From an uncultured archaeon (GTDB lineage Archaea; Asgardarchaeota; Thorarchaeia; Thorarchaeales; Thorarchaeaceae), in assembly GCA_964558645.1 (NCBI GenBank), contig CAZLEV010000023.1:1-32234 (forward strand): 32,234 bases of DNA. The letters run 5' to 3'. Position 1 is the stretch's first letter. Each line of letters starts with the position of its first letter. The translations under genes were made by a program, and so were the position numbers. The notes under the pieces are model-generated. The model made no database searches, was not told where the DNA came from, and saw only the letters and a program-made list of their open reading frames with translations. Below are positions 3,787 through 14,145 of the stretch, piece after piece.

Positions 3787-4038
3787 TTCAGAGAGAAGGC
3801 TGTTTGCACGTGTTCTCACCATATCATCTATGCTGTTCAGCAGGAGTTGACGACGGGAAAAGGGCTAGGCCTATTCGATGAGATTCTTCGTCTCCAGCAG
3901 GAGGTGACAAAGTTCCCTGATTGCACCGTGGCCTCCATTGCACTCGCACACGTAGATGGAGGTTCTCTTCACAACATCCGATGCGTCTGCGGGACATGCC
4001 CCGAGGTCCACCATCTTGATGCATTCAAGATCATCTAG
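3787..4038 (+). pseudogene. Cys/His-rich putative zinc-binding ORF lacking a clean start (remnant, frameshifted or read-through extension)
   Basis: Open frame FREKAVCTCSHHIIY...FPDC...CVCGTCPEVHH directly after, and in frame with, TGA 3784-3786. The first in-frame start is TTG 3847, which lies downstream of the first CxC-HH motif. Confidence 0.35.
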
Positions 4039-4790
4039 ATTGTCACCTACGAACGGGGTTTTAGAGAGGATTAGGTAGTCGACTCGATGGATACGCTTGT
4101 ACTCCGAATAACAGCAATCGGTCAGTTAGTGTTTCAAGGATTTCTATCGTTGCGGTCCAGAACCGATTCTTCTATGATTTGGTCGATGAATCATTGTATG
4201 CTAGTCCCTTCAGCGTTGATGCTGTTTCTCTGGGAACCCTGCATCTAGCACCGCATTGAAGAAAAGGCTATACGTCGCTTTCTTAGACTGGGCACATATC
4301 TCTCACTATCATGCCTTCTCCCACTTCATATGTGGAGAATGAACCGTTCCGGTTGTTCCATACACGATACACATGCTCTCTCCTGCGGGCACATACCTTA
4401 GACTACAGCGGATAGCATTCCATCCAGCATGAAGAGAGAACTCAGGCCTCCCGACTCCAGTAACCCGGCAGCAGTCAGGATGAATGCATCGGAATTATCA
4501 GATGAAGAGGGCAACAGGAAGTCAGAGATACAAAACTCGGAGTAGGATGCCTCGGCCAGCACAGGATACCCCGCCAGAGTGGTCTTGATGTGTCTGGTGC
4601 CGCGGTATGCTTGAAGGCTCTAACCGAGATAAGGACACCGTCATCCGATTAGCCTTTTCTCGGGCTTGGAGTTGTCATTAGTTCCGCGAGAATACCATTT
4701 CTTTAAATACCGTTCTTACAGAAGTGCCAGAACAGGAAAGGTCCCCATAAAGAATAGTTTCTCTGTATTCCGTCAGAATCAGAGGTGGAA

Positions 4791-5711
4791 ATGATGAAGC
4801 CATTGCGAGTCCTATATCTCTGGAATACTGCGGGTGCTTTGACGCCTGTGGCCGATTGGTTACTCGATCATGGACATCAAGCTAGGATACTCATGAGTAC
4901 AGAATATGACCTCTTCGGAAGCACATCGTGTTCTGATGCGGCGCTCATGGTGGATTCGGTCATCTCATACTATCTGGAGGTCCTCCGACACCTTCTCGTC
5001 TTCCAGCCAACGCATGTTCATATCAATGCAAACATTCCCTCGCTGATATTGGCTCGACTGCTGAAACCGACCACTCCCATTGTTTTCCAGTACCATGGAA
5101 TTGAGGTTCGCTATCGCGATAGGGTCCATCCCGAGATGGCATTGGCAGATAGAGTGATTGTATCCACGCCGGATCTGAGGGATTATGGTAGATGGTACGA
5201 TCGTCCAGTTTCTAAGATGTTCTACTATCGTGGAGGTAGAGAGCCAAATACAGCGGTTATGTTCTATGCTGACTACTTCATGGAGGATCTCCGCAGAGAG
5301 GCTAAGCAATGGTGTGAAGAGCGAAACATTGACCTCAGAATCATCCAGCGGGGCTTAGATCCTATCATCCCTTATGCAGAGATGCCTCAATTCCTATCGA
5401 AGTTTGAGTATTTCATGGACTTCAAAGGATATGGAGACCCCGAGGCGATCAGTCGACTGGCGCTTGAGGCCATTGCCTGTGGGTGCAAGATTGTCAGTGA
5501 CACCGATCCGACACATGTAATCGATGACTACGATTTGCCCAAGCCTGAGGTTTACTACGAACTCTACACTGATATGAAACGCCCTCCATTATCTATTAAT
5601 CGTCAGGTCATCGCTCTCCGTGGACTCATGAAGTGGGGTCTTGGCTCGCTCGCTCCGATCCCCCGACCTCCGCCCCAGCGTCAGTCATCGAATTTCCAGG
5701 AGAGGATTTGA
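4791..5711 (+). CDS. GT-B fold glycosyltransferase (GT4-like)
   Basis: LRVLYLWNTAG N-terminus, FQYHG, IPYAEMPQFLSKFEY and ALEAIACGCKIV (ExxACG motif); SD GAGGTG 4782-4787 before ATG 4791. Confidence 0.75.
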   Translation: MMKPLRVLYLWNTAGALTPVADWLLDHGHQARILMSTEYDLFGSTSCSDAALMVDSVISYYLEVLRHLLVFQPTHVHINANIPSLILARLLKPTTPIVFQYHGIEVRYRDRVHPEMALADRVIVSTPDLRDYGRWYDRPVSKMFYYRGGREPNTAVMFYADYFMEDLRREAKQWCEERNIDLRIIQRGLDPIIPYAEMPQFLSKFEYFMDFKGYGDPEAISRLALEAIACGCKIVSDTDPTHVIDDYDLPKPEVYYELYTDMKRPPLSINRQVIALRGLMKWGLGSLAPIPRPPPQRQSSNFQERI

Positions 5712-5759
5712 CATTCAGTTGAGAACCGATACGGCATCCGGCTATGCGGAGGTTTCCCG

Positions 5760-6899
5760 TTGAAACTCCTTGTTCTGGGACCATATGGTGAGACCACCAG
5801 TGGGCCCTCACGTGTTCTAACTGAGGTAGTTGAGCGTCTGCCCTCGGGATTCGAAGTTCTCGTTCTCTCGCCGCGAAGGCGATCTGAATACTGGCGATCG
5901 GATGAAGATAGAGGGAACGTGAGAATCAGATTTCAGCCCTGTGGCCAAATCCCTGGATTGCCTATGTCACATCAGTGGCTAGAGATTCTTAGAACCAACC
6001 TAAAGCTTGCTGCTCTTGCATTCAACCCTGATTTGGTATGGACTCACAGCACGACACTCTTCACGGCCTATGCTCATAGCAGAATCCGGACCACTCCTGC
6101 TGTTGCCACAGTGCACGGCGTATTCGGGGACTACTACCGAGCCGAAGCAGAACAGAGGTCAAGTGGGCTCTTGACCAATCTATTCGTCATGCAGAACTAC
6201 CATTTGCAGAGATATGAGTTCAAGAATGCCGCCCATCTGACAACATACTCCGAATACTTGAAGAGCCTGATTCAAGAGGTGACCCCATCTGCAGAAGTCA
6301 CTGTCATTCCTAATGGTGTCAATGTGGAGCGCTTTAGACCATCGGTAGATGACCGTGAGAGAGTCATCCTGTATGTGGGCCGAATGGCGAGAATCAAAGG
6401 AGTACATGTTCTCATCAGGAGCATGAAATGGGTGACTGAGAAGCATCCTGAGTGGCGATTATGGCTGGTTGGGGGCGCATTCGACCAACCTCGGTCCTTC
6501 TTTGAAGACCACATGACCCCAACAACACGGAAACAGATTGAATTCCTCGGCCAGATTCCAAACGAGGAGCTTCCCGCCCTTCTCAGTCGCGCAGGCATTT
6601 TTGTTATGCCAACTCTGCGGGATGGCTTTGAGATAGCACTGATGGAGGCGATGGCCAGCGGGATTCCATGCGTCACGACTGGTGCTTACGAGCGCACGGA
6701 GCTCTATGGTGGCTACGCTGAAGCTGTTCCTCCTGGAGATGCACAATCTCTGGGTAGATGTCTGAATGAGGTAATCGGCCACTATGACGAATACACAGCA
6801 GACTCCGCCGTGGCAAGGAGAGTGTCCAGAGCGAGGGAGTTCTCTTGGTCCAAGATCGCAGATAGATATGCAGAGCTATTCAGGAGAGTGATTGAATGA
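5760..6899 (+). CDS. Glycosyltransferase family 4
   Basis: VATVHG, VIPNGVNVERF, ILYVGRMARIKG, DGFEIALMEAMASGIPCVTT and FSWSKIA; SD GGAGGT before TTG. Confidence 0.92.
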   Translation: MKLLVLGPYGETTSGPSRVLTEVVERLPSGFEVLVLSPRRRSEYWRSDEDRGNVRIRFQPCGQIPGLPMSHQWLEILRTNLKLAALAFNPDLVWTHSTTLFTAYAHSRIRTTPAVATVHGVFGDYYRAEAEQRSSGLLTNLFVMQNYHLQRYEFKNAAHLTTYSEYLKSLIQEVTPSAEVTVIPNGVNVERFRPSVDDRERVILYVGRMARIKGVHVLIRSMKWVTEKHPEWRLWLVGGAFDQPRSFFEDHMTPTTRKQIEFLGQIPNEELPALLSRAGIFVMPTLRDGFEIALMEAMASGIPCVTTGAYERTELYGGYAEAVPPGDAQSLGRCLNEVIGHYDEYTADSAVARRVSRAREFSWSKIADRYAELFRRVIE

Positions 6900-7681
6900 C
6901 CAATGTGGCGATTATCATTCCCGTCTTTTACCGTGAACACCTCAAAAAGGCGATCCGCTCGGTCTTGTTAAACGATTGTGATGTTATACTCGTCAACGAC
7001 TCCGATGTGCCGTTGACATATGAGCACCCTCGAGTGACCGTCATCGACAATGGAATGAATCTAGGTGTCGGTATTTCCCGCAATCGAGGAGTTAGAGCAG
7101 CCCTTGATGTCGGATATGATCTTATTGGATTTGTCGATTCTGATAGTGTTCTGTCGCCGACTTGGCGAAGGGAATGCGAAAAGACTCTCCAAGACCCATC
7201 TATCATCGGCGTATCAGGACTCGCACTGAATCCCAATCAACCGTCCACAATCGCCAGAGTGAAGTATGTTCTGAAGGACTATAGCCGACGCAAGTCCATT
7301 CCGTTTCAGATAGACTGCTCACTCTTCAAGCGAGAGGCCTTCGCTCATGCTAGTTTCGGAAAAAGGCGAATTGCTGAAGACGCATTCTTCCTGCGTCAAA
7401 TAGACAGGAGTAGGCTGGCGGTCAATGAGGATACAATCTCGTATCATCACGAAGTGGACTCTGTGAGCGATTACTTCAGAAAGGAAATCGTGGGGGCACT
7501 GTATTCTCTCTCAGAGCCATTGAGTGTGGCACGCAGCTTCTTCCTGACTCCTTATACCTGCATGAAGATGGTTCTGCGGAAAGACCGACATCCTGACTAT
7601 CCGATTGCGGCCCTTATCTGGCTGATTCGTCAGGTGGCTTGGAATCTTGCATATGTTCTGGGTAGGATGGCTGATATCTGA
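6896..7681 (+). CDS. Glycosyltransferase family 2 (GT-A)
   Basis: IIIPVF, VILVND, NLGVGISRNRG, FVDSD (DxD) and IAED; ATGA overlap with the upstream GT4. Confidence 0.85.
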   Translation: MTNVAIIIPVFYREHLKKAIRSVLLNDCDVILVNDSDVPLTYEHPRVTVIDNGMNLGVGISRNRGVRAALDVGYDLIGFVDSDSVLSPTWRRECEKTLQDPSIIGVSGLALNPNQPSTIARVKYVLKDYSRRKSIPFQIDCSLFKREAFAHASFGKRRIAEDAFFLRQIDRSRLAVNEDTISYHHEVDSVSDYFRKEIVGALYSLSEPLSVARSFFLTPYTCMKMVLRKDRHPDYPIAALIWLIRQVAWNLAYVLGRMADI

Positions 7682-7696
7682 CTCACATGCTTGAAT

Positions 7697-8917
7697 TCAT
7701 CTGAAACCTAGCAGTTGAAGCAGATACTCATAGACCCGTTCGGATGCACCAGGCTTCTGGTACTCATTAATCAGCCGATTCACCTGTCTTCGTTGCTCAG
7801 CGTATTCATCGGATTCCCACAATGCCTTCTCTATGGCTCTTTGAAATACGGTGAATGTGTACACCTTCTCCCCGGGACACCAGAAATCATAGTCTGGATA
7901 GCATAGACTCTCTCTCTCAAGGAAGTCGTCCAAGTCATATGGAACGAAGATCATGGGTCGATCCAGTAGCATGAAGTCGCTTTGGATGGAGGAATAGTCA
8001 TTGATGAGCAGGTCCACTTCAGGAAGAACTTCGGCTATGTCCGGTTGTAACGCGTAGGGGAGGTTCCGAATATGGTGTGTTTCCTTGACCTCTCCCCCGT
8101 CTCCTTCGTGGGAACGGATGAGCATGAGAATCCTCTTCCCCGCACACCATTCTTCTAGTGCATCTGTCGTGAAATCCTCAAAGGGAAAGAACCTGACAGT
8201 GCCTTCAGTTCTCCAAGTCGTTGCATATAATAGAACCTTGTCATATTCAGGCAGACTAGCATACAATGTGGGTATTTTCTCTTTCCACCTCGACTCATCC
8301 AAGAGATAATCACACCTAGGATATCCTAAAGATAGGATTTGAGTTGGGTGAAGGGCGTGTGCATACGCTCTCATGTATGAGTCCAGACGTGAACATGTGA
8401 GAAAGGCAGTAGTGTACTGCATCCAATGCTCTGAGTCTTGGAGCATCTCTCTTGTGAACTTCTTCGAGGCATACCCATCTGCTTTGGGCCCGTGCCCATG
8501 CCAGAGATGTATCACATACTTCCTCTTGGATGGCCGCAGGTTTCCCATGTCCCCCAAGCTGTTTGTCATGAGAATAGTCTTTGCTCTAAGAAAGAGGTGA
8601 ACTGTACCCAATGATGGTCGTCGTATACACCTCTCGTACGGACTATCGGTATGATGATTCAAGAAGAAGTAGCACCGAAACGGATGACCTTCTCGATGCG
8701 CGATATATTCGAATAGTGCCTTCGAGTTTCCGGACGGATACGACCCACCTCGCGAGCCGAAGATTAGAATCGTCGAGTCCTTTGGCCATATATAGTCTAG
8801 AAATTGGATAATCCGTCGGAACCCTTTGGTGAGTATCTCTCTGAAGCGCATTCTCATTCTCTCCGTTTCTGAGGTGTCCTTTGGTTGGTCAGGCTGACTC
8901 GCATCTTGTTCCAGCAT
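7697..8917 (-). CDS. CDP-glycerol/polyol:glycerophosphate transferase family (TagB/TagF-like)
   Basis: Family motifs LWHGHGPK, GYPRCD, LYATTWR, IRSH, LINDYSS and DFMLLDRPMIF. Confidence 0.88.
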   Translation of the reverse strand: MLEQDASQPDQPKDTSETERMRMRFREILTKGFRRIIQFLDYIWPKDSTILIFGSRGGSYPSGNSKALFEYIAHREGHPFRCYFFLNHHTDSPYERCIRRPSLGTVHLFLRAKTILMTNSLGDMGNLRPSKRKYVIHLWHGHGPKADGYASKKFTREMLQDSEHWMQYTTAFLTCSRLDSYMRAYAHALHPTQILSLGYPRCDYLLDESRWKEKIPTLYASLPEYDKVLLYATTWRTEGTVRFFPFEDFTTDALEEWCAGKRILMLIRSHEGDGGEVKETHHIRNLPYALQPDIAEVLPEVDLLINDYSSIQSDFMLLDRPMIFVPYDLDDFLERESLCYPDYDFWCPGEKVYTFTVFQRAIEKALWESDEYAEQRRQVNRLINEYQKPGASERVYEYLLQLLGFR

Positions 8918-8933: not shown

Positions 8934-9689
8934 TCAGGCCCAATAGCCCTCTTCGAGGAGCTCAGCGGCCCAATGCAGATCTGTGGGGGTATCGATGTCC
9001 TTCCATATAGCCCCCTCGACTGGCTTTACATAGAATCCCCGCTCCCTACTCGACTGCTTGTGGACGTATTCGCTGAGTGATCTCTTGTCTTTTGGGAGGT
9101 CAGCTATGATTTCAAAAGCATCTTGAGTCAGTTTGAAGATGCCCATGTCAATCATGTTCCACTGCGAGATATTCTTTCCGATTTTGACTAGCCTATGATT
9201 CTTCTCAGAGAGGATCTTGGTTGCATCGGCCAGATCCAGATAGTCCGGAATGCCTTCATTTCGATATTGTGCGCAGACATAGGGCGTGTTGACTGTGTCA
9301 GTAACGACACATTTTCGGTAGGTTGCAGGAGAGAAGAGGTGGTCTGACATCTGGAGGATAAACTCCTCATTAGACAGGAGGCCATCGCACGCTAGCAATG
9401 TGGCCGCATTTCCATCTTGCCAATCCTCTGATTTGACCACTACCACATTATCATAGAGATGGCCTTGGCTCTCAACATAGTCAACCATAGTTTCATAGTG
9501 GATGCCTACGGATATGAAGAGCCTGAAGTCCCCTCTTAGACAGACATCAATCGTCGAAACAATGTGATCGAGAATGGTCTTGTTCTCCAGCTCCAATAGG
9601 GTCTTGGGAATTTCTTGGTGTATTTCTTCAAGTCTTATTCCCAGACCCCCTGCGACAATAACAATCTCTTCCATCAGCATCGACACCAT
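8934..9689 (-). CDS. CTP:polyol/inositol-phosphate cytidylyltransferase-like NTP transferase (IPCT/LicC-like)
   Basis: VAGGLGIRL...PKTLL, FILQMSDH, DLADATKI, KIGK...IDMGIF and WKDIDTPTDL. Confidence 0.8.
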   Translation of the reverse strand: MVSMLMEEIVIVAGGLGIRLEEIHQEIPKTLLELENKTILDHIVSTIDVCLRGDFRLFISVGIHYETMVDYVESQGHLYDNVVVVKSEDWQDGNAATLLACDGLLSNEEFILQMSDHLFSPATYRKCVVTDTVNTPYVCAQYRNEGIPDYLDLADATKILSEKNHRLVKIGKNISQWNMIDMGIFKLTQDAFEIIADLPKDKRSLSEYVHKQSSRERGFYVKPVEGAIWKDIDTPTDLHWAAELLEEGYWA

Positions 9690-9770: not shown

Positions 9771-10316
9771 TTATTGAAGCCCGTCGCTTCGGTCTGATCG
9801 TGTGGTTTCATCAGACTCACTGTATATGTCAGAAAAGGGATGTTTCGCTACATACTCCTCACGCAGTTCAATCGCCCTGTCGATGTCTTCTCTGATTTCT
9901 GGCCGGAAGCCCTCGAGTTTGTTATAGTACTCTCTAGTCTCTGCAATGGCGGTCTTGTCTAGGTTGAACTCGTCTGCCAACTGCTCACTCACATCGAGCA
10001 TGGTTGCATAGATGGGCAACCAGAGTATTCTATCAATTGGACGTGGAACATATTGGAACGGGTTACGTTCCTGTGTCACTTCATGAGACGGTGCCCACAT
10101 GACGAATACTCTGTCATAGATATAGCCCCCTACTAGAAAGAAGACAAAGAGAGTCACTGAGAACGCAATCGGCCCCCAAGCACCGAGCCCGGCGAATATT
10201 GGGATATATCCAAAGTACGCATATGCCAACATGAATGTGCTGAAGAATAAACCCCAGATCCCTCTGATTTGTACAAGTCTCCATTGTTGTTTCATCAACC
10301 ATTTTCTTAGTCCCAT
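9771..10316 (-). CDS. Hypothetical 2-TM membrane protein (one copy of the GxxYD..W..ERNP domain)
   Basis: 181-aa ORF with two hydrophobic segments and SD GAGGATG; paralogous to both halves of the upstream ORF. Confidence 0.8.
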   Translation of the reverse strand: MGLRKWLMKQQWRLVQIRGIWGLFFSTFMLAYAYFGYIPIFAGLGAWGPIAFSVTLFVFFLVGGYIYDRVFVMWAPSHEVTQERNPFQYVPRPIDRILWLPIYATMLDVSEQLADEFNLDKTAIAETREYYNKLEGFRPEIREDIDRAIELREEYVAKHPFSDIYSESDETTRSDRSDGLQ

Positions 10317-10319
10317 CTC

Positions 10320-11432
10320 TCATCCTCTCACTGTTTCAAGTCGCTCATCTAAAGGTTCGAAAACTGCTCCCAATTCAGACCTCAACCTCTGTGCCTCGAA
10401 TAGGTCTTCATTTCGTGTGACGCTCAGTTGCAGGTACTCGTGAAGATACAATGCGAGCCTATCAATCACTATCGTATCCATATCATGGCTCACAAAAAGC
10501 TCTCGTAGAACCGCGAAGAATGTATGGTAGATAGGCAGCAGTAATGCATAGTTTCTGGGTTCAGGAACATAGCTATAGGGATTACGCTCGATATTCACGA
10601 TTTGTTCTGGTGACCAGAGTACTAGCTTTCTGTCATAATACCAGCCCGCAATGGCCATGCCGACGTACATCGGTACAGACAACATCAGTATCCCTCGAAG
10701 CAAGTAATCCAGCGGAACAAGGTCGCCGTAGGGGGTGGAAACCACGACATTCGGGTAAAGAAGTGTAACGAAGAGTGCTCCAAAGATAAGGACATCCTGG
10801 GCCAGCCCGGAAAAAGACTGGATATAATTGACCCTGAGGACCTCGAGCTGAAATCTCTTCTTTGCCTTGGCGCCTAGGCTTGCCTCTTTATTGGATGCCT
10901 TCCTTGGACGATTGAACGGGTGTTGTTCAAGGAACTCCTCAGCGAGCTCTTCTGCTGAGAAGAGATCATCCTTATTCTCAGGATTCCTCCGGAAGAAATC
11001 ATCCAAGTACACACTGAGGTCCAGTATGGTCTCAGCCGGTAGGTTCAGCTTCTTGAACAACCTGTGCAGTGTGTCAAAGATAACATAGGCTGCGGGATAG
11101 TCGATTGCTAGCGCTCTGAAATCCGGCACATATGAGTAAGGGTTCCGCTCCAGTCCCACCTGCACCGACTCTTTCCATAGTCGGGCTCTCTCGTCGTACG
11201 CCCAGCCAATGATAAGAAACACAAAGATCAGAATCACCGCTAATACCAACGCACCGATTAGACCCAGCGAGTCTAGTATTGGGACATATGGTGAGTAGAA
11301 TCTTCCAAGTGTCAGCATGCCGAAAGCGAGGGCTAGAAGAGTCCTGATACTGCCAATGCGCCAATATTGTTTCATCAGCCACTTAGATTTCGTCAACCGG
11401 CGACCGCCTCTGTCTTGCTTCGATGAAGTCAT
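10320..11432 (-). CDS. Hypothetical 4-TM membrane protein (tandem duplication of the GWxYD..W..ERNPYSYVP domain)
   Basis: 370 aa from ATG 11432; longer starts overlap the divergent GT2 gene or its leader. ERNPYSYVP occurs twice, and there is a 3-nt gap to the next gene. Confidence 0.8.
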   Translation of the reverse strand: MTSSKQDRGGRRLTKSKWLMKQYWRIGSIRTLLALAFGMLTLGRFYSPYVPILDSLGLIGALVLAVILIFVFLIIGWAYDERARLWKESVQVGLERNPYSYVPDFRALAIDYPAAYVIFDTLHRLFKKLNLPAETILDLSVYLDDFFRRNPENKDDLFSAEELAEEFLEQHPFNRPRKASNKEASLGAKAKKRFQLEVLRVNYIQSFSGLAQDVLIFGALFVTLLYPNVVVSTPYGDLVPLDYLLRGILMLSVPMYVGMAIAGWYYDRKLVLWSPEQIVNIERNPYSYVPEPRNYALLLPIYHTFFAVLRELFVSHDMDTIVIDRLALYLHEYLQLSVTRNEDLFEAQRLRSELGAVFEPLDERLETVRG

Positions 11433-11519
11433 AATATAACGCTTCCCACGATTCAGCGGTTGTCCCTCCATAGAGAACCGATTATAAGGCACGAGTTCAG
11501 GGAGGTAGACGAGCACTCT

Positions 11520-12467
11520 ATGACAGGTGACACCCAGAGCGATGCATATGTCCCTTTCCATGAGTACTGCAGATACTGCACTACCCGTTGTACTGCACCC
11601 CCATCGACTTCATCTCAATACGTGTTGGTCACTAACGTATGGAATGAGGAACCAAGGATAGAGCGGGCCTTCGAGTGGATGATGCACCAATCACGAAAAC
11701 CCTTGGTCTGGCTGTGGATTGACGACGGGTCTACAGACGGCACATACGAGGAAATCAAGCACCTGTCAGAAGAACACCCCGAACTCAAGGTTTGGGTTGA
11801 GCGTATGCCCATGAAAGAACAGGGCAATCTCAATACAATCGGAAATGCTTACACAGAACACATGCCCGGTTTCATCAAGAGGCTAAGGGGGCAGAGCGTA
11901 GACTATTATGCAATCCAAGATGTCGGCACGCAGCCATGTCCCAACTACTATGCCCGTATCATGCATCTGATGGATGAGCATCCAGAGATTGGAGCGTCGT
12001 CAGGCTATGTCATTGGAGAGGAGCGGGCACGAGAATCCGGCATGCCCATGGGAGACTGTAAGGTGACTCGCTGGGAGATTATTCGTGAGATTGAGGAATA
12101 TTGGCCTCTATCCCCTGACACCTTCGTGAATATCAAGACGCTCAAGAGAGGATGCCGCTTGAAGATCTGGGCCATCCCTGTTTTTCAAGATGAGCCCTCC
12201 TTCGGCACCACTGCACGGGGTATGTTCTATCAGGGTCAACTGAACTACTTCGTGGGCAGACCCTTTCTTGGTGTTCTACTCAGGGCTCTCCGCAGATTAT
12301 TTCTTCGTCGACATGGGACTGATATGCTCAGGGGGTATCTCTACGAACGGGAGAAGCAGACATGGCGGTGCGAGGATCCTGATGTGCTTGAGTTCTATGG
12401 CCACGGACAATCACCTCTGTGGGTAATATGGAACTTGCTCAAAACACGTGGCCGCTATTCTGATTAG
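11520..12467 (+). CDS. Glycosyltransferase family 2 (GT-A) with N-terminal CxxCxxxC
   Basis: YVLVTNVWNEE and WLWIDDGSTDGT; SD GGAGGT at ~11501 before ATG 11520. Confidence 0.85.
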   Translation: MTGDTQSDAYVPFHEYCRYCTTRCTAPPSTSSQYVLVTNVWNEEPRIERAFEWMMHQSRKPLVWLWIDDGSTDGTYEEIKHLSEEHPELKVWVERMPMKEQGNLNTIGNAYTEHMPGFIKRLRGQSVDYYAIQDVGTQPCPNYYARIMHLMDEHPEIGASSGYVIGEERARESGMPMGDCKVTRWEIIREIEEYWPLSPDTFVNIKTLKRGCRLKIWAIPVFQDEPSFGTTARGMFYQGQLNYFVGRPFLGVLLRALRRLFLRRHGTDMLRGYLYEREKQTWRCEDPDVLEFYGHGQSPLWVIWNLLKTRGRYSD

Positions 12468-12825: not shown

Positions 12826-13323
12826 CTAGTTATCAAACGGAACTTCAGGTTCAACGAGGAGAACCAGCCCGCTCTTTCCATGAACTCGAACACGTTGCCC
12901 TGCCTCGACTATCGGCCCTGTGGTCTTCGCCCGCCAATACTCTCCACGGTACTGCACATACCCCTCTTGCGTCGGTCCCAGCCGATCCATCGTTCGGCCG
13001 ACGCCGCCGATGAAGTCAAGGTTCATGGGTGGTTGCTCCTTCACCTGTGAGATCTTGTACAGCAAGAACAACGAGAAACACGAGAAGATTGCTGTCACCG
13101 CCACAAGCACCAGAGACAGTCCTGGCAGCCATACCGGTGGAGTGGGCCAGACCAAGGGCGTCACCATGAACCATAGAGCGGTTCCTGTGATCAGAAAGAA
13201 GACGGCAGCTGGCCCGAAGCACTCTGCCTCTTCTGACACAAGCTCTGCCACCACCAACGCCAGACCCAGCGCTATGAGTGTGATTGCAGTGAACGCCCAC
13301 CCGATTCCAAGCACTTGCATCAT
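12826..13323 (-). CDS. nfeD: NfeD-family membrane protein (short form, C-terminal OB fold)
   Basis: Three TM segments, then IGGVG...EGYVQYRGEYWRA...GQRVRV...GLVLLVEP; adjacent to an SPFH gene. Confidence 0.88.
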   Translation of the reverse strand: MMQVLGIGWAFTAITLIALGLALVVAELVSEEAECFGPAAVFFLITGTALWFMVTPLVWPTPPVWLPGLSLVLVAVTAIFSCFSLFLLYKISQVKEQPPMNLDFIGGVGRTMDRLGPTQEGYVQYRGEYWRAKTTGPIVEAGQRVRVHGKSGLVLLVEPEVPFDN

Positions 13324-13338
13324 CTTTCTTCCTCCTTT

Positions 13339-14145
13339 CTAGCCCGTGTCCCTTTTCTGTCTCTTTGCCGCCTCGGCTACGGCGAACATGTGTCCAATCT
13401 CTTCGGCGTTCCCGGTGGTAGTGACCACTACCAGGTTCTTCTCTCGCGCAATCTCTTGAAGAGTCTGCAACTCTCGAATCTTTAGAGTGATTGGGCTTGC
13501 AGCGTACATCTCTGCCGCCTTGACCATCTTCTCTGCCGCCATGTACTCTCCCTCGGCAATGATGATGCGGGCTCGACGTTCTCGTTCAGCCTCAGCCTGC
13601 TTTGCTATGGCTCGCTGCATCTCTGTAGGCAGAATGACGTCACTGATGGCCACATCGCTCACTTTGATCCCCCAGTGGTCTGTCTTCTCATCGATCTCCT
13701 CTTGGATTCTGAGTGTCAAGTCCTGTGTGCGGGTCAGGAGGTCGTCCAAGTCCACTGTGCCAAGAACGTCTCGTAGAACAGTCTTGGCTAGATTCCGGAT
13801 TGCGGAGATGTAGTTCTCAATCTCCAGTACAGCAAGCTTCGGATCCACAACTCGATAGAAGACGAATGAGTCCACATCACATCTGATGTTGTCTTTCGTG
13901 ATCACTTTGATTGTGCGTGCGTCGTATGTCACTGTGCGCAGGTCCACCACCTGTAGTTTGTCAAGTCCGGGGATGATTAGAAACAATCCTGGTCCCTTTA
14001 TTCCAACAAATCTACCCATGCGGAATATCACCGCTCGCTCGTATTCCTTAACAATCCGTACGGACATCGCGATGAGCAGGATGACGAGAAATCCGATGAA
14101 AAACAGTCCCATGGTTATGTAGAATGGCAGCGCTTCTATTTGCAT
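13339..14145 (-). CDS. Stomatin-like SPFH/band-7 (slipin) protein
   Basis: IVKEYERAVIFRMGR, GPGLFLIIP, VDLRT, ITKDN, WGIKV and MQRAIAKQAEAERERRARIIIAEGE. Confidence 0.95.
   Translation of the reverse strand: MQIEALPFYITMGLFFIGFLVILLIAMSVRIVKEYERAVIFRMGRFVGIKGPGLFLIIPGLDKLQVVDLRTVTYDARTIKVITKDNIRCDVDSFVFYRVVDPKLAVLEIENYISAIRNLAKTVLRDVLGTVDLDDLLTRTQDLTLRIQEEIDEKTDHWGIKVSDVAISDVILPTEMQRAIAKQAEAERERRARIIIAEGEYMAAEKMVKAAEMYAASPITLKIRELQTLQEIAREKNLVVVTTTGNAEEIGHMFAVAEAAKRQKRDTG

Follow-up and report, generated by a model that had tools for sequence, protein, structure and literature searches.

In the stretch of Thorarchaeal DNA analysed here (contig CAZLEV010000023.1, 32,234 nucleotides (nt); hereafter the window), two adjacent genes, A and B, were found to encode three copies of a membrane module of about 170 amino acids (aa), two in gene A and one in gene B. 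By the sequence and fold comparisons reported below, the module represents an undescribed archaeal family without detectable relative. This family is near-core and single-copy in Marine Group II (MGII), and accessory and triplicated in Thorarchaeia. The products of A and B almost certainly work together as a hetero-oligomer of three non-redundant units. Our favoured, still tentative interpretation is that this hetero-oligomer is a membrane platform whose conserved cytoplasmic face organises glycan-decorating enzymes on lipid-linked acceptors.

Gene A (10320..11432, minus strand) encodes a protein of 370 aa with two fused units and four transmembrane (TM) helices, both termini being predicted to lie in the cytoplasm (N-in/C-in). 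Unit A1 (10878..11432, minus; residues 1-185) comprises a basic helix with KWLMKQYWR, TM1, TM2 ending in GWAYD, a tryptophan, the motif ERNPYSYVP (11124..11150, minus) and a three-helix tail with HPF. Unit A2 (10323..10877, minus; residues 186-370) follows the same plan with KRFQLEVLR, TM3, TM4 ending in GWYYD, a tryptophan, ERNPYSYVP (10563..10589, minus) and a helical tail that lacks HPF; its outer loop is longer and contains a predicted beta-hairpin. Gene B (9771..10316, minus; 181 aa) encodes one unit, with ERNPFQYVP at 10044..10070 (minus). All three motifs were read from the translations, and on the minus strand their positions, as well as the open reading frames, are exactly where the initial annotation had placed them. 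The A-B junction (10317..10322, minus) consists of the A stop codon TGA, the codon GAG and the B start codon ATG, so that B indeed begins 3 nt after A, with a single codon between stop and start. The reading frame of gene A is open up to 11561 (413 aa). Since A homologues are 334-365 aa long, translation more likely begins at the 370-aa start or downstream of it.

The three units are, by their mutual similarity, true paralogues. In pairwise BLASTP with A cut at residue 190, A1 matched A2 with an E-value of 1.4e-21 (37% identity over 121 aa) and B with 7.6e-31 (35% over 158 aa), while A2 matched B with 4.7e-19 (35% over 107 aa). Moreover, a profile of the unit found exactly three matches in the whole 3.6-Mb genome, all in the A-B locus. 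The 2+1 arrangement across two adjacent genes that was first read from the translations is thus confirmed. Ten residues (K5, R13, G64, Y67, D68, W74, E83, R84, P86, and P101 in B numbering) are invariant in the three units and 33 B homologues. B is the best conserved of the units, with 50-73% identity among homologues versus 34-61% for A, and on this measure evolves slowest of the three units.

The initial annotation had recognised no family for the module, and none emerged from our searches of Pfam, NCBIfam, PDB sequences and known folds. A had no Pfam or NCBIfam match. For B, nothing in Pfam or NCBIfam rose above the cut-off, and the best candidate (DUF6015, E-value 0.009, 16.8 bits versus a cut-off of 27) covered only tail residues 120-168. 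A Pfam scan of 64 family members gave no common family, and a profile search of PDB sequences reached a best E-value of 0.48. The Foldseek check that had been recommended, run on the A model, gave no match in the PDB (best E-value 0.88). Exhaustive VIA-align comparisons yielded best Z-scores of 6.7 for the A model and 6.8 for the A+B model, within the range of unrelated helical proteins. In the ESM Atlas, the only structural neighbours above a template-modelling score of 0.5 were unnamed archaeal clusters of the module's own family. YlaC (PF10777) was rejected as a relative: it appeared there as a feature neighbour only, at 0.87, under the 0.9 threshold for leads, and hmmscan found no match. 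There was also no match to the module in a viral structure library, and literature searches found no description of its family.

The names carried by homologues put the window in Thorarchaeota, an Asgard group. Mapping the unit profile, as the initial annotation had suggested, gave the distribution, copy number and neighbours of the family. The unit was carried by 31 of the 301 sampled Asgard genomes: it was present in 26 of 76 genomes of the window's own Asgard family, there in the A-then-B order, in 1 of 19 genomes of a second family, and as a single-unit protein in 3 of 11 genomes of a third, and it was absent from the remaining Asgard families searched in this sample. Within the window's family there are as a rule three unit matches per genome, except where a contig ends inside the locus or, once, where the locus is duplicated; complete assemblies never contain A or B alone. 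The duplicated case is assembly G254, in which contigs C151 and C162 hold two complete A-B loci (7 unit matches), reflecting either a true duplication or two strains binned together. A profile search of 1.8 billion representative proteins returned 175 clusters. Apart from the Thorarchaeal A and B types, all of them were single-unit proteins of 150-200 aa, and the search contained no three-unit protein. The consensus of the wider family reads K-K-x-x-M-x3-W-R-x-Q-Q, two TM helices, and G-x-x-Y-D-x5-W-x5-V-x2-E-R-N-P-[YF], often with P-K-E. When a degenerate DNA pattern of the motif was scanned over one genome per prokaryotic species, matches fell mainly in Poseidoniales (MGII) and other Thermoplasmatota. 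In Poseidoniales, for which at least 80% completeness was requested, 137 of 151 sampled genomes have a single-unit gene, almost always in one copy. One further contig (L053), titled as a Yoonia sp. metagenome-assembled genome and binned as Rhodobacteraceae, carries an archaeal single-unit gene next to the beta-propeller and CYTH genes that also neighbour it in MGIIa contigs and is probably a mis-binned Poseidoniales contig.

Several apparent fusion proteins in these sets were discarded. Frames of 665 and 327 aa in high-GC MGII genomes result from upstream read-through, the real starts lying near KKWFMRQYWR. P0203 (438 aa) looks chimeric with a cation-transporter-like region, and P0275 and P0260 carry only additional low-complexity or zinc-ribbon tails.

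A maximum-likelihood tree of 66 units separated an MGII clade from an Asgard clade. The latter consists of three lineages, namely the single-unit proteins of the third Asgard family (Heimdall-type), B (support 98/99), and A1 and A2 as sisters (96/92), with A2 itself supported at 100/100. From this topology it follows that a first duplication gave rise to B and a proto-A, and that a second, tandem duplication with fusion gave rise to A1-A2. According to the tree, both duplications predate the radiation of the sampled Thorarchaeia. The invariant residues were kept in all three copies after duplication.

The two genes are also strictly associated. In all 17 Thorarchaeal loci examined, A lies directly upstream of B on one strand, so the pairing is anything but rare, a rarity that the initial annotation had named as an argument against a joint complex. 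In 15 other genomes, A and B overlap or stand 3-11 nt apart, and their relative frame varies. A and B are in frame across the TGA in the window only by chance of frame, and the frame differs elsewhere. Such tight junctions in varying frames indicate translational coupling and not programmed read-through of the TGA, which we reject on this ground and because the 1.8 billion representative proteins included none with three units. The initial annotation proposed an obligate hetero-oligomer with pseudo-threefold or sixfold symmetry. Of this proposal, the joint working of A and B stands, at the strength of almost certain and no further; it draws on the invariant adjacency, the tight junctions, the separate and old clades of the units, and the score of a fused structural model (predicted template modelling score (pTM) 0.74; see below).

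Each unit combines a basic helix next to the membrane, a TM hairpin whose outer loop is tiny, interfacial G-[WY]-x-Y-D, W and E-R-N-P-[YF] elements, and a three-helix cytoplasmic tail. Lysine and arginine are concentrated on one side of the membrane: the first 30 residues of A contain 9, the first 20 of B contain 5 and the linker between the units of A contains 9, and the loops between paired TM helices contain none. This distribution places every unit N-in/C-in, with all tails in the cytoplasm. The N-terminal basic segment, with a net charge of +3 to +5, was initially described as amphipathic, a description that is not supported: its helical hydrophobic moment (0.12-0.19) is no better than that of shuffled sequences, and the AlphaFold model draws it as a cytoplasmic extension of TM1. 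The outer loops (8-20 residues) are unconserved. The TM helices contain conserved glycine and proline, and no conserved charged or polar residue, while the invariant polar residues are located at the cytoplasmic membrane boundary. Given the apolar TM helices, the unconserved outer loops and the conservation on the cytoplasmic side, a polar translocation path is disfavoured. The pattern suggests that the module works at the inner membrane face.

An AlphaFold2 model of A, built from a 57-sequence alignment, was all-helical, with a mean predicted local distance difference test (pLDDT) score of 85.2 and a pTM of 0.73. The A-TGA-B read-through was then folded as a single chain of 553 residues in which TGA was read as G, using an alignment of three other natural in-frame read-through sequences and 51 A homologues. 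The fused A+B model had a mean pLDDT of 78.8 and a pTM of 0.74; the cytoplasmic domain of B was modelled at pLDDT 90-95, and the linker was disordered. A pTM of 0.74 for a three-unit chain of this length suggests that the units adopt a defined mutual arrangement in the model. Furthermore, several weak structural alignments of the fused model run across helices from each of the three units (model ranges about 97-540), which is consistent with one packed bundle.

The genomic surroundings link the module to glycan decoration. All 17 Thorarchaeal A-B loci sit in glycan islands, where the neighbours vary and include genes for NeuB, UDP-GlcNAc 2-epimerase, PseB-like dehydratase, DegT aminotransferase, and UDP-glucose dehydrogenase; GT2, GT4, PMT_2, GNAT acetyltransferases, a B12/radical-SAM enzyme, and PIG-L; and a sulfotransferase with a CysQ-like phosphatase and a glucuronyl C5-epimerase. 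A-B is the sole membrane protein consistently present in these islands, whose enzymes lack TM helices. Among Thorarchaeal genomes, 5 of the 22 that are A-B-positive have TagF and none of the 20 A-B-negative ones does; each of the five copies is 1-2 kb away from A-B. Since the genomes share ancestry and were grouped by their A-B status, this contrast is to be read as a pattern and not as a statistic. A single-unit gene also stands directly before TagF in a Heimdall-labelled contig (L049/L056), and in two MGII contigs such a gene is no more than 3 kb from TagF. In 7 Thorarchaeal loci, a gene immediately next to A-B encodes a soluble protein of some 470 aa with a K-L-H-P-G-E stretch (L036:9761-11179; also in L034, L035, L041, L044, L045, and L052); in 2 further loci this gene lies up to 8.3 kb away, and its surroundings include NeuB, epimerase and DegT genes. 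The protein had no Pfam, NCBIfam or PDB-sequence match and may be a nonulosonic-acid (sialyl-type) transferase.

Sulfation genes recur as well. In two Thorarchaeal loci (L040 and L043) the order is sulfotransferase, A, B, CysQ-like gene, with a D-glucuronyl C5-epimerase-like protein nearby. A TauE/SafE anion exporter is additionally encoded in L040, and a UDP-glucose dehydrogenase in L043. Together these genes would fit a sulfated glycan with iduronic/glucuronic acid of the kind known from Halobacterium salinarum. MGIIb loci show the order unit, CysQ, sulfotransferase, CysD, and CysN/C (a fusion of CysN and adenosine 5'-phosphosulfate kinase), with CysQ on the strand of the unit and assigned by TIGR01331 (229.9 bits versus a cut-off of 228.8); the single-unit gene has this company in 14 of 65 MGII loci. 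Such a cluster implies that Marine Group II makes sulfated products, either at the cell surface or among its lipids. Compact clusters of this kind, with one or two sulfotransferases, stand beside the single-unit gene in Thalassarchaeaceae-type contigs (L095, L079, and L100) and other MGIIb loci. In two high-GC MGII genomes, read by eye, the single-unit gene is followed by a KdsC-like phosphatase gene and faces NeuA- and NeuB-like genes. The theme that recurs in three lineages (Thorarchaeia, the Heimdall-type family and MGII) is that of soluble enzymes adding acidic groups, that is, polyol phosphate, sulfate, nonulosonic acids and uronic acids.

In the window itself, the operon order is A, B, cytidylyltransferase and TagB/TagF-type phosphotransferase, flanked by four soluble GT2/GT4 enzymes. 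The nucleotidyltransferase (8934..9689, minus) has as its best NCBIfam match the cytidylyltransferase half of inositol-1-phosphate cytidylyltransferase/DIPP synthase (IPCT/DIPPS; E-value 2.9e-26, below the curated cut-off), and its gene is kept beside A-B in L042, L046, and L048. The TagB/TagF-type cytidine diphosphate (CDP)-alcohol phosphotransferase (7697..8917, minus; Glyphos_transf, E-value 2e-53) has no TM helix and is a candidate client of the putative A/B complex. Family searches identified a divergent, soluble GT2-like glycosyltransferase (11460..12467, plus), paralogues of which occur near A-B in 7 other loci, and a convergent block of three soluble glycosyltransferases (GT4-like, GT4 and GT2; 4785..7681, plus), which is also present in L042. 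Between the gene of a NosD-like surface protein and the first GT4-like gene lies about 1 kb (3787-4784) without an open reading frame above 66 aa. Just upstream of A, on the same strand, are NfeD-like and SPFH/stomatin genes (12826-14145), a pairing that is not conserved in other loci.

How might these observations fit together? In the platform interpretation, A and B would assemble, in amounts fixed by translational coupling, into a hetero-oligomer with the three unit types in non-equivalent positions, and the single-unit proteins would form a corresponding homo-oligomer. The TM hairpins would mainly serve as anchors, while the conserved cytoplasmic face and the helical tails would constitute a platform at the inner membrane surface. 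Such a platform could hold or position soluble group-transferring enzymes on a membrane-bound, probably dolichyl-phosphate-linked, glycan acceptor; these enzymes would be the TagF-type polyol-phosphate transferase in the window, and sulfotransferases and nonulosonic-acid enzymes elsewhere. Of the functions offered in the initial annotation, a scaffold for neighbouring soluble transferases fits best, and a channel or exporter is made less likely by the apolar TM helices, the short unconserved outer loops and the cytoplasmic-side conservation. The link to soluble glycan transferases holds in three lineages.

There is precedent for enzymes of this type acting at the membrane. In Halobacterium salinarum, two sulfotransferases, the first soluble and the second membrane-associated, appear to act on a tetrasaccharide bound to dolichyl phosphate (PMC11980604), and in eukaryotes DPM2/DPM3 anchor the cytoplasmic DPM1 via a DPM3 coiled coil (PMC9633384). 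The likeness to DPM2/DPM3 lies in small TM-hairpin proteins that form a hetero-oligomer of related small subunits in a glycan pathway and anchor a soluble glycosyltransferase near its dolichol-linked substrate; Alg14 for Alg13 is a comparison in the same spirit. Each A/B unit, with its predicted N-in/C-in hairpin and three-helix cytoplasmic tail, has a DPM-type architecture, and the resemblance is architectural only: the DPM2/DPM3 families gave no Pfam match and show no sequence or fold relation to A/B. In addition, the A/B units have roughly double the length, show an invariant polar motif at the interface and occur in three paralogous copies, and A/B is only a putative binder of transferases.

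Several observations weigh against the platform, in which contact between A/B and the enzymes is itself hypothetical. The B part of the fused model rested on only 4 aligned sequences, and the A-B interface, judged from the model scores, is putative. R13, D68 and E83-R84-N85 are near-invariant although the paralogues are only about 35% identical, a degree of constraint more like that of a ligand-binding or catalytic site than of a docking surface. TagF is missing from 17 of the 22 A-B-positive Thorarchaeal genomes, and the family is therefore not explained by any single client. Finally, many MGII subgroups have non-glycan neighbours (L18Ae, PcrB, CYTH, and GFO/IDH/MocA oxidoreductase), so that part of the association may be synteny in compact genomes.

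Second to the platform we rank the reading, in our view unlikely, in which A/B translocates lipid-linked acidic glycans as a new flippase or exporter and replaces a Wzx-type flippase in the islands, with a passage formed from six TM helices or a multiple of six. Its appeal lies in the composition of the islands: A-B is their only constant membrane protein, the polytopic neighbours that could be named are PMT_2, MFS, EamA, and TauE, and in none of the 17 Thorarchaeal loci does a Wzx/Polysacc_synt gene come within 7 kb of A-B. Complementarity with Wzx weakens at the level of whole genomes. PF01943 is missing from 9 of 22 A-B-positive versus 3 of 20 A-B-negative genomes, which favours this reading as a tendency only; there is no exclusion, as it is present in 13 of 22 positive and 17 of 20 negative genomes. 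The window's own genome has two PF01943 matches on contig C4, and in 5 of 65 MGII loci a Polysacc_synt gene is found no more than 5 kb from the single-unit gene. The conservation pattern described above (no conserved charged or polar residue in the TM helices, short unconserved outer loops, and all conservation on the cytoplasmic side) speaks against transport too, as does the lack of any similarity to a transporter fold above the helical background (best Z-scores 6.7-6.8). While Wzx/MOP proteins are likewise membrane proteins encoded in surface-glycan gene islands, they differ in having at least 12 TM helices, the MOP fold and charged cavity residues, as opposed to two TM helices per unit, six in A+B, and no conserved charge. 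Neither A nor B has a Pfam match to the Wzx/MOP families (PF01943 or PF13440).

A catalytic role, which we likewise regard as improbable, would make better sense of the invariant residues. The unit would then be a small interfacial membrane enzyme or lipid-carrier-binding protein acting on polyprenyl or dolichyl phosphate, or on a lipid head group, in the cytoplasmic leaflet, with sites at or between subunits and an architecture comparable to that of DgkA, the trimeric prokaryotic diacylglycerol/undecaprenol kinase. R13, D68, E83, R84 and N85 lie together where membrane and cytoplasm meet and vary little or not at all in the three paralogues and the single-unit relatives, and the one-copy, near-core status in Poseidoniales (137 of 151 genomes) would be expected of a housekeeping step and not of an adaptor for variable enzymes. 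In MGIIb the single-unit gene is moreover close to PcrB/GGGP synthase. DgkA itself is a helical membrane protein of very small size that assembles from three subunits; its N-terminus forms a cytoplasmic helix, and acidic and basic residues are conserved at its cytoplasmic interface. However, DgkA (PF01219) has three TM helices, whereas the A/B unit has two and a soluble three-helix tail, no Pfam or fold match to DgkA and no recognised nucleotide-binding features. More generally, there was no Pfam/NCBIfam match to DAGK_prokar, PAP2, CDP-alcohol transferase or any other enzyme family, no fold match and no recognised metal- or nucleotide-binding motif, and a heterotrimer that keeps three full sites would be unusual among duplicated enzymes.

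Less probable still is a general membrane role in envelope organisation, protein quality control or signalling, with the glycan neighbours explained by gene flux through islands and conserved synteny in small genomes. The MGII neighbourhoods do vary by subgroup and include housekeeping genes (L18Ae, PcrB and SRP54-type GTPase), the Heimdall-type loci L050 and L051 have neighbours that are not glycan genes, and NfeD and SPFH/stomatin genes lie just upstream in the window. Against such a role stand the repeated association with genes for TagF, sulfation or nonulosonic acids in three separate lineages (Thorarchaeia, the Heimdall-type family and MGII) and the position of 17 of 17 Thorarchaeal loci in glycan islands. 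A polysaccharide co-polymerase of the Wzz type, which would share two TM helices, an oligomeric state and a place in glycan gene clusters, is rejected, as it requires a large extracytoplasmic domain and A/B has outer loops of 8-20 residues and all its domains in the cytoplasm.

The role of a membrane platform is itself of a known kind. What is new here is the link to a near-universal MGII gene, the duplication history, the associations with TagF and sulfation, and the test of complementarity with Wzx. It is possible, though doubtful, that the family goes beyond a platform and constitutes a new archaeal membrane machine of three subunits or a multiple of three, homo-oligomeric in Marine Group II and hetero-oligomeric in Thorarchaeia, which itself processes a lipid carrier or moves lipid-linked acidic glycans. 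If true, the machine would be a new flippase or carrier-processing enzyme unrelated to Wzx, ABC, MurJ and DgkA. To our knowledge, both the flippase and the route by which soluble enzymes reach dolichol-linked substrates are still open questions in the archaeal glycan field.

The family has no database description. It is nevertheless almost a core gene of Marine Group II, which ranks with the most abundant surface-ocean archaea, and its module has been triplicated and fixed in one Asgard lineage. The presumed 2+1 hetero-oligomer and the presumed homo-oligomer from a single gene offer a natural contrast for testing subunit number and symmetry. The steady company of TagF-type phosphotransferases, sulfation dependent on 3'-phosphoadenosine 5'-phosphosulfate, and genes for sialic-acid-like sugars points to a missing membrane component of archaeal surface-glycan decoration.

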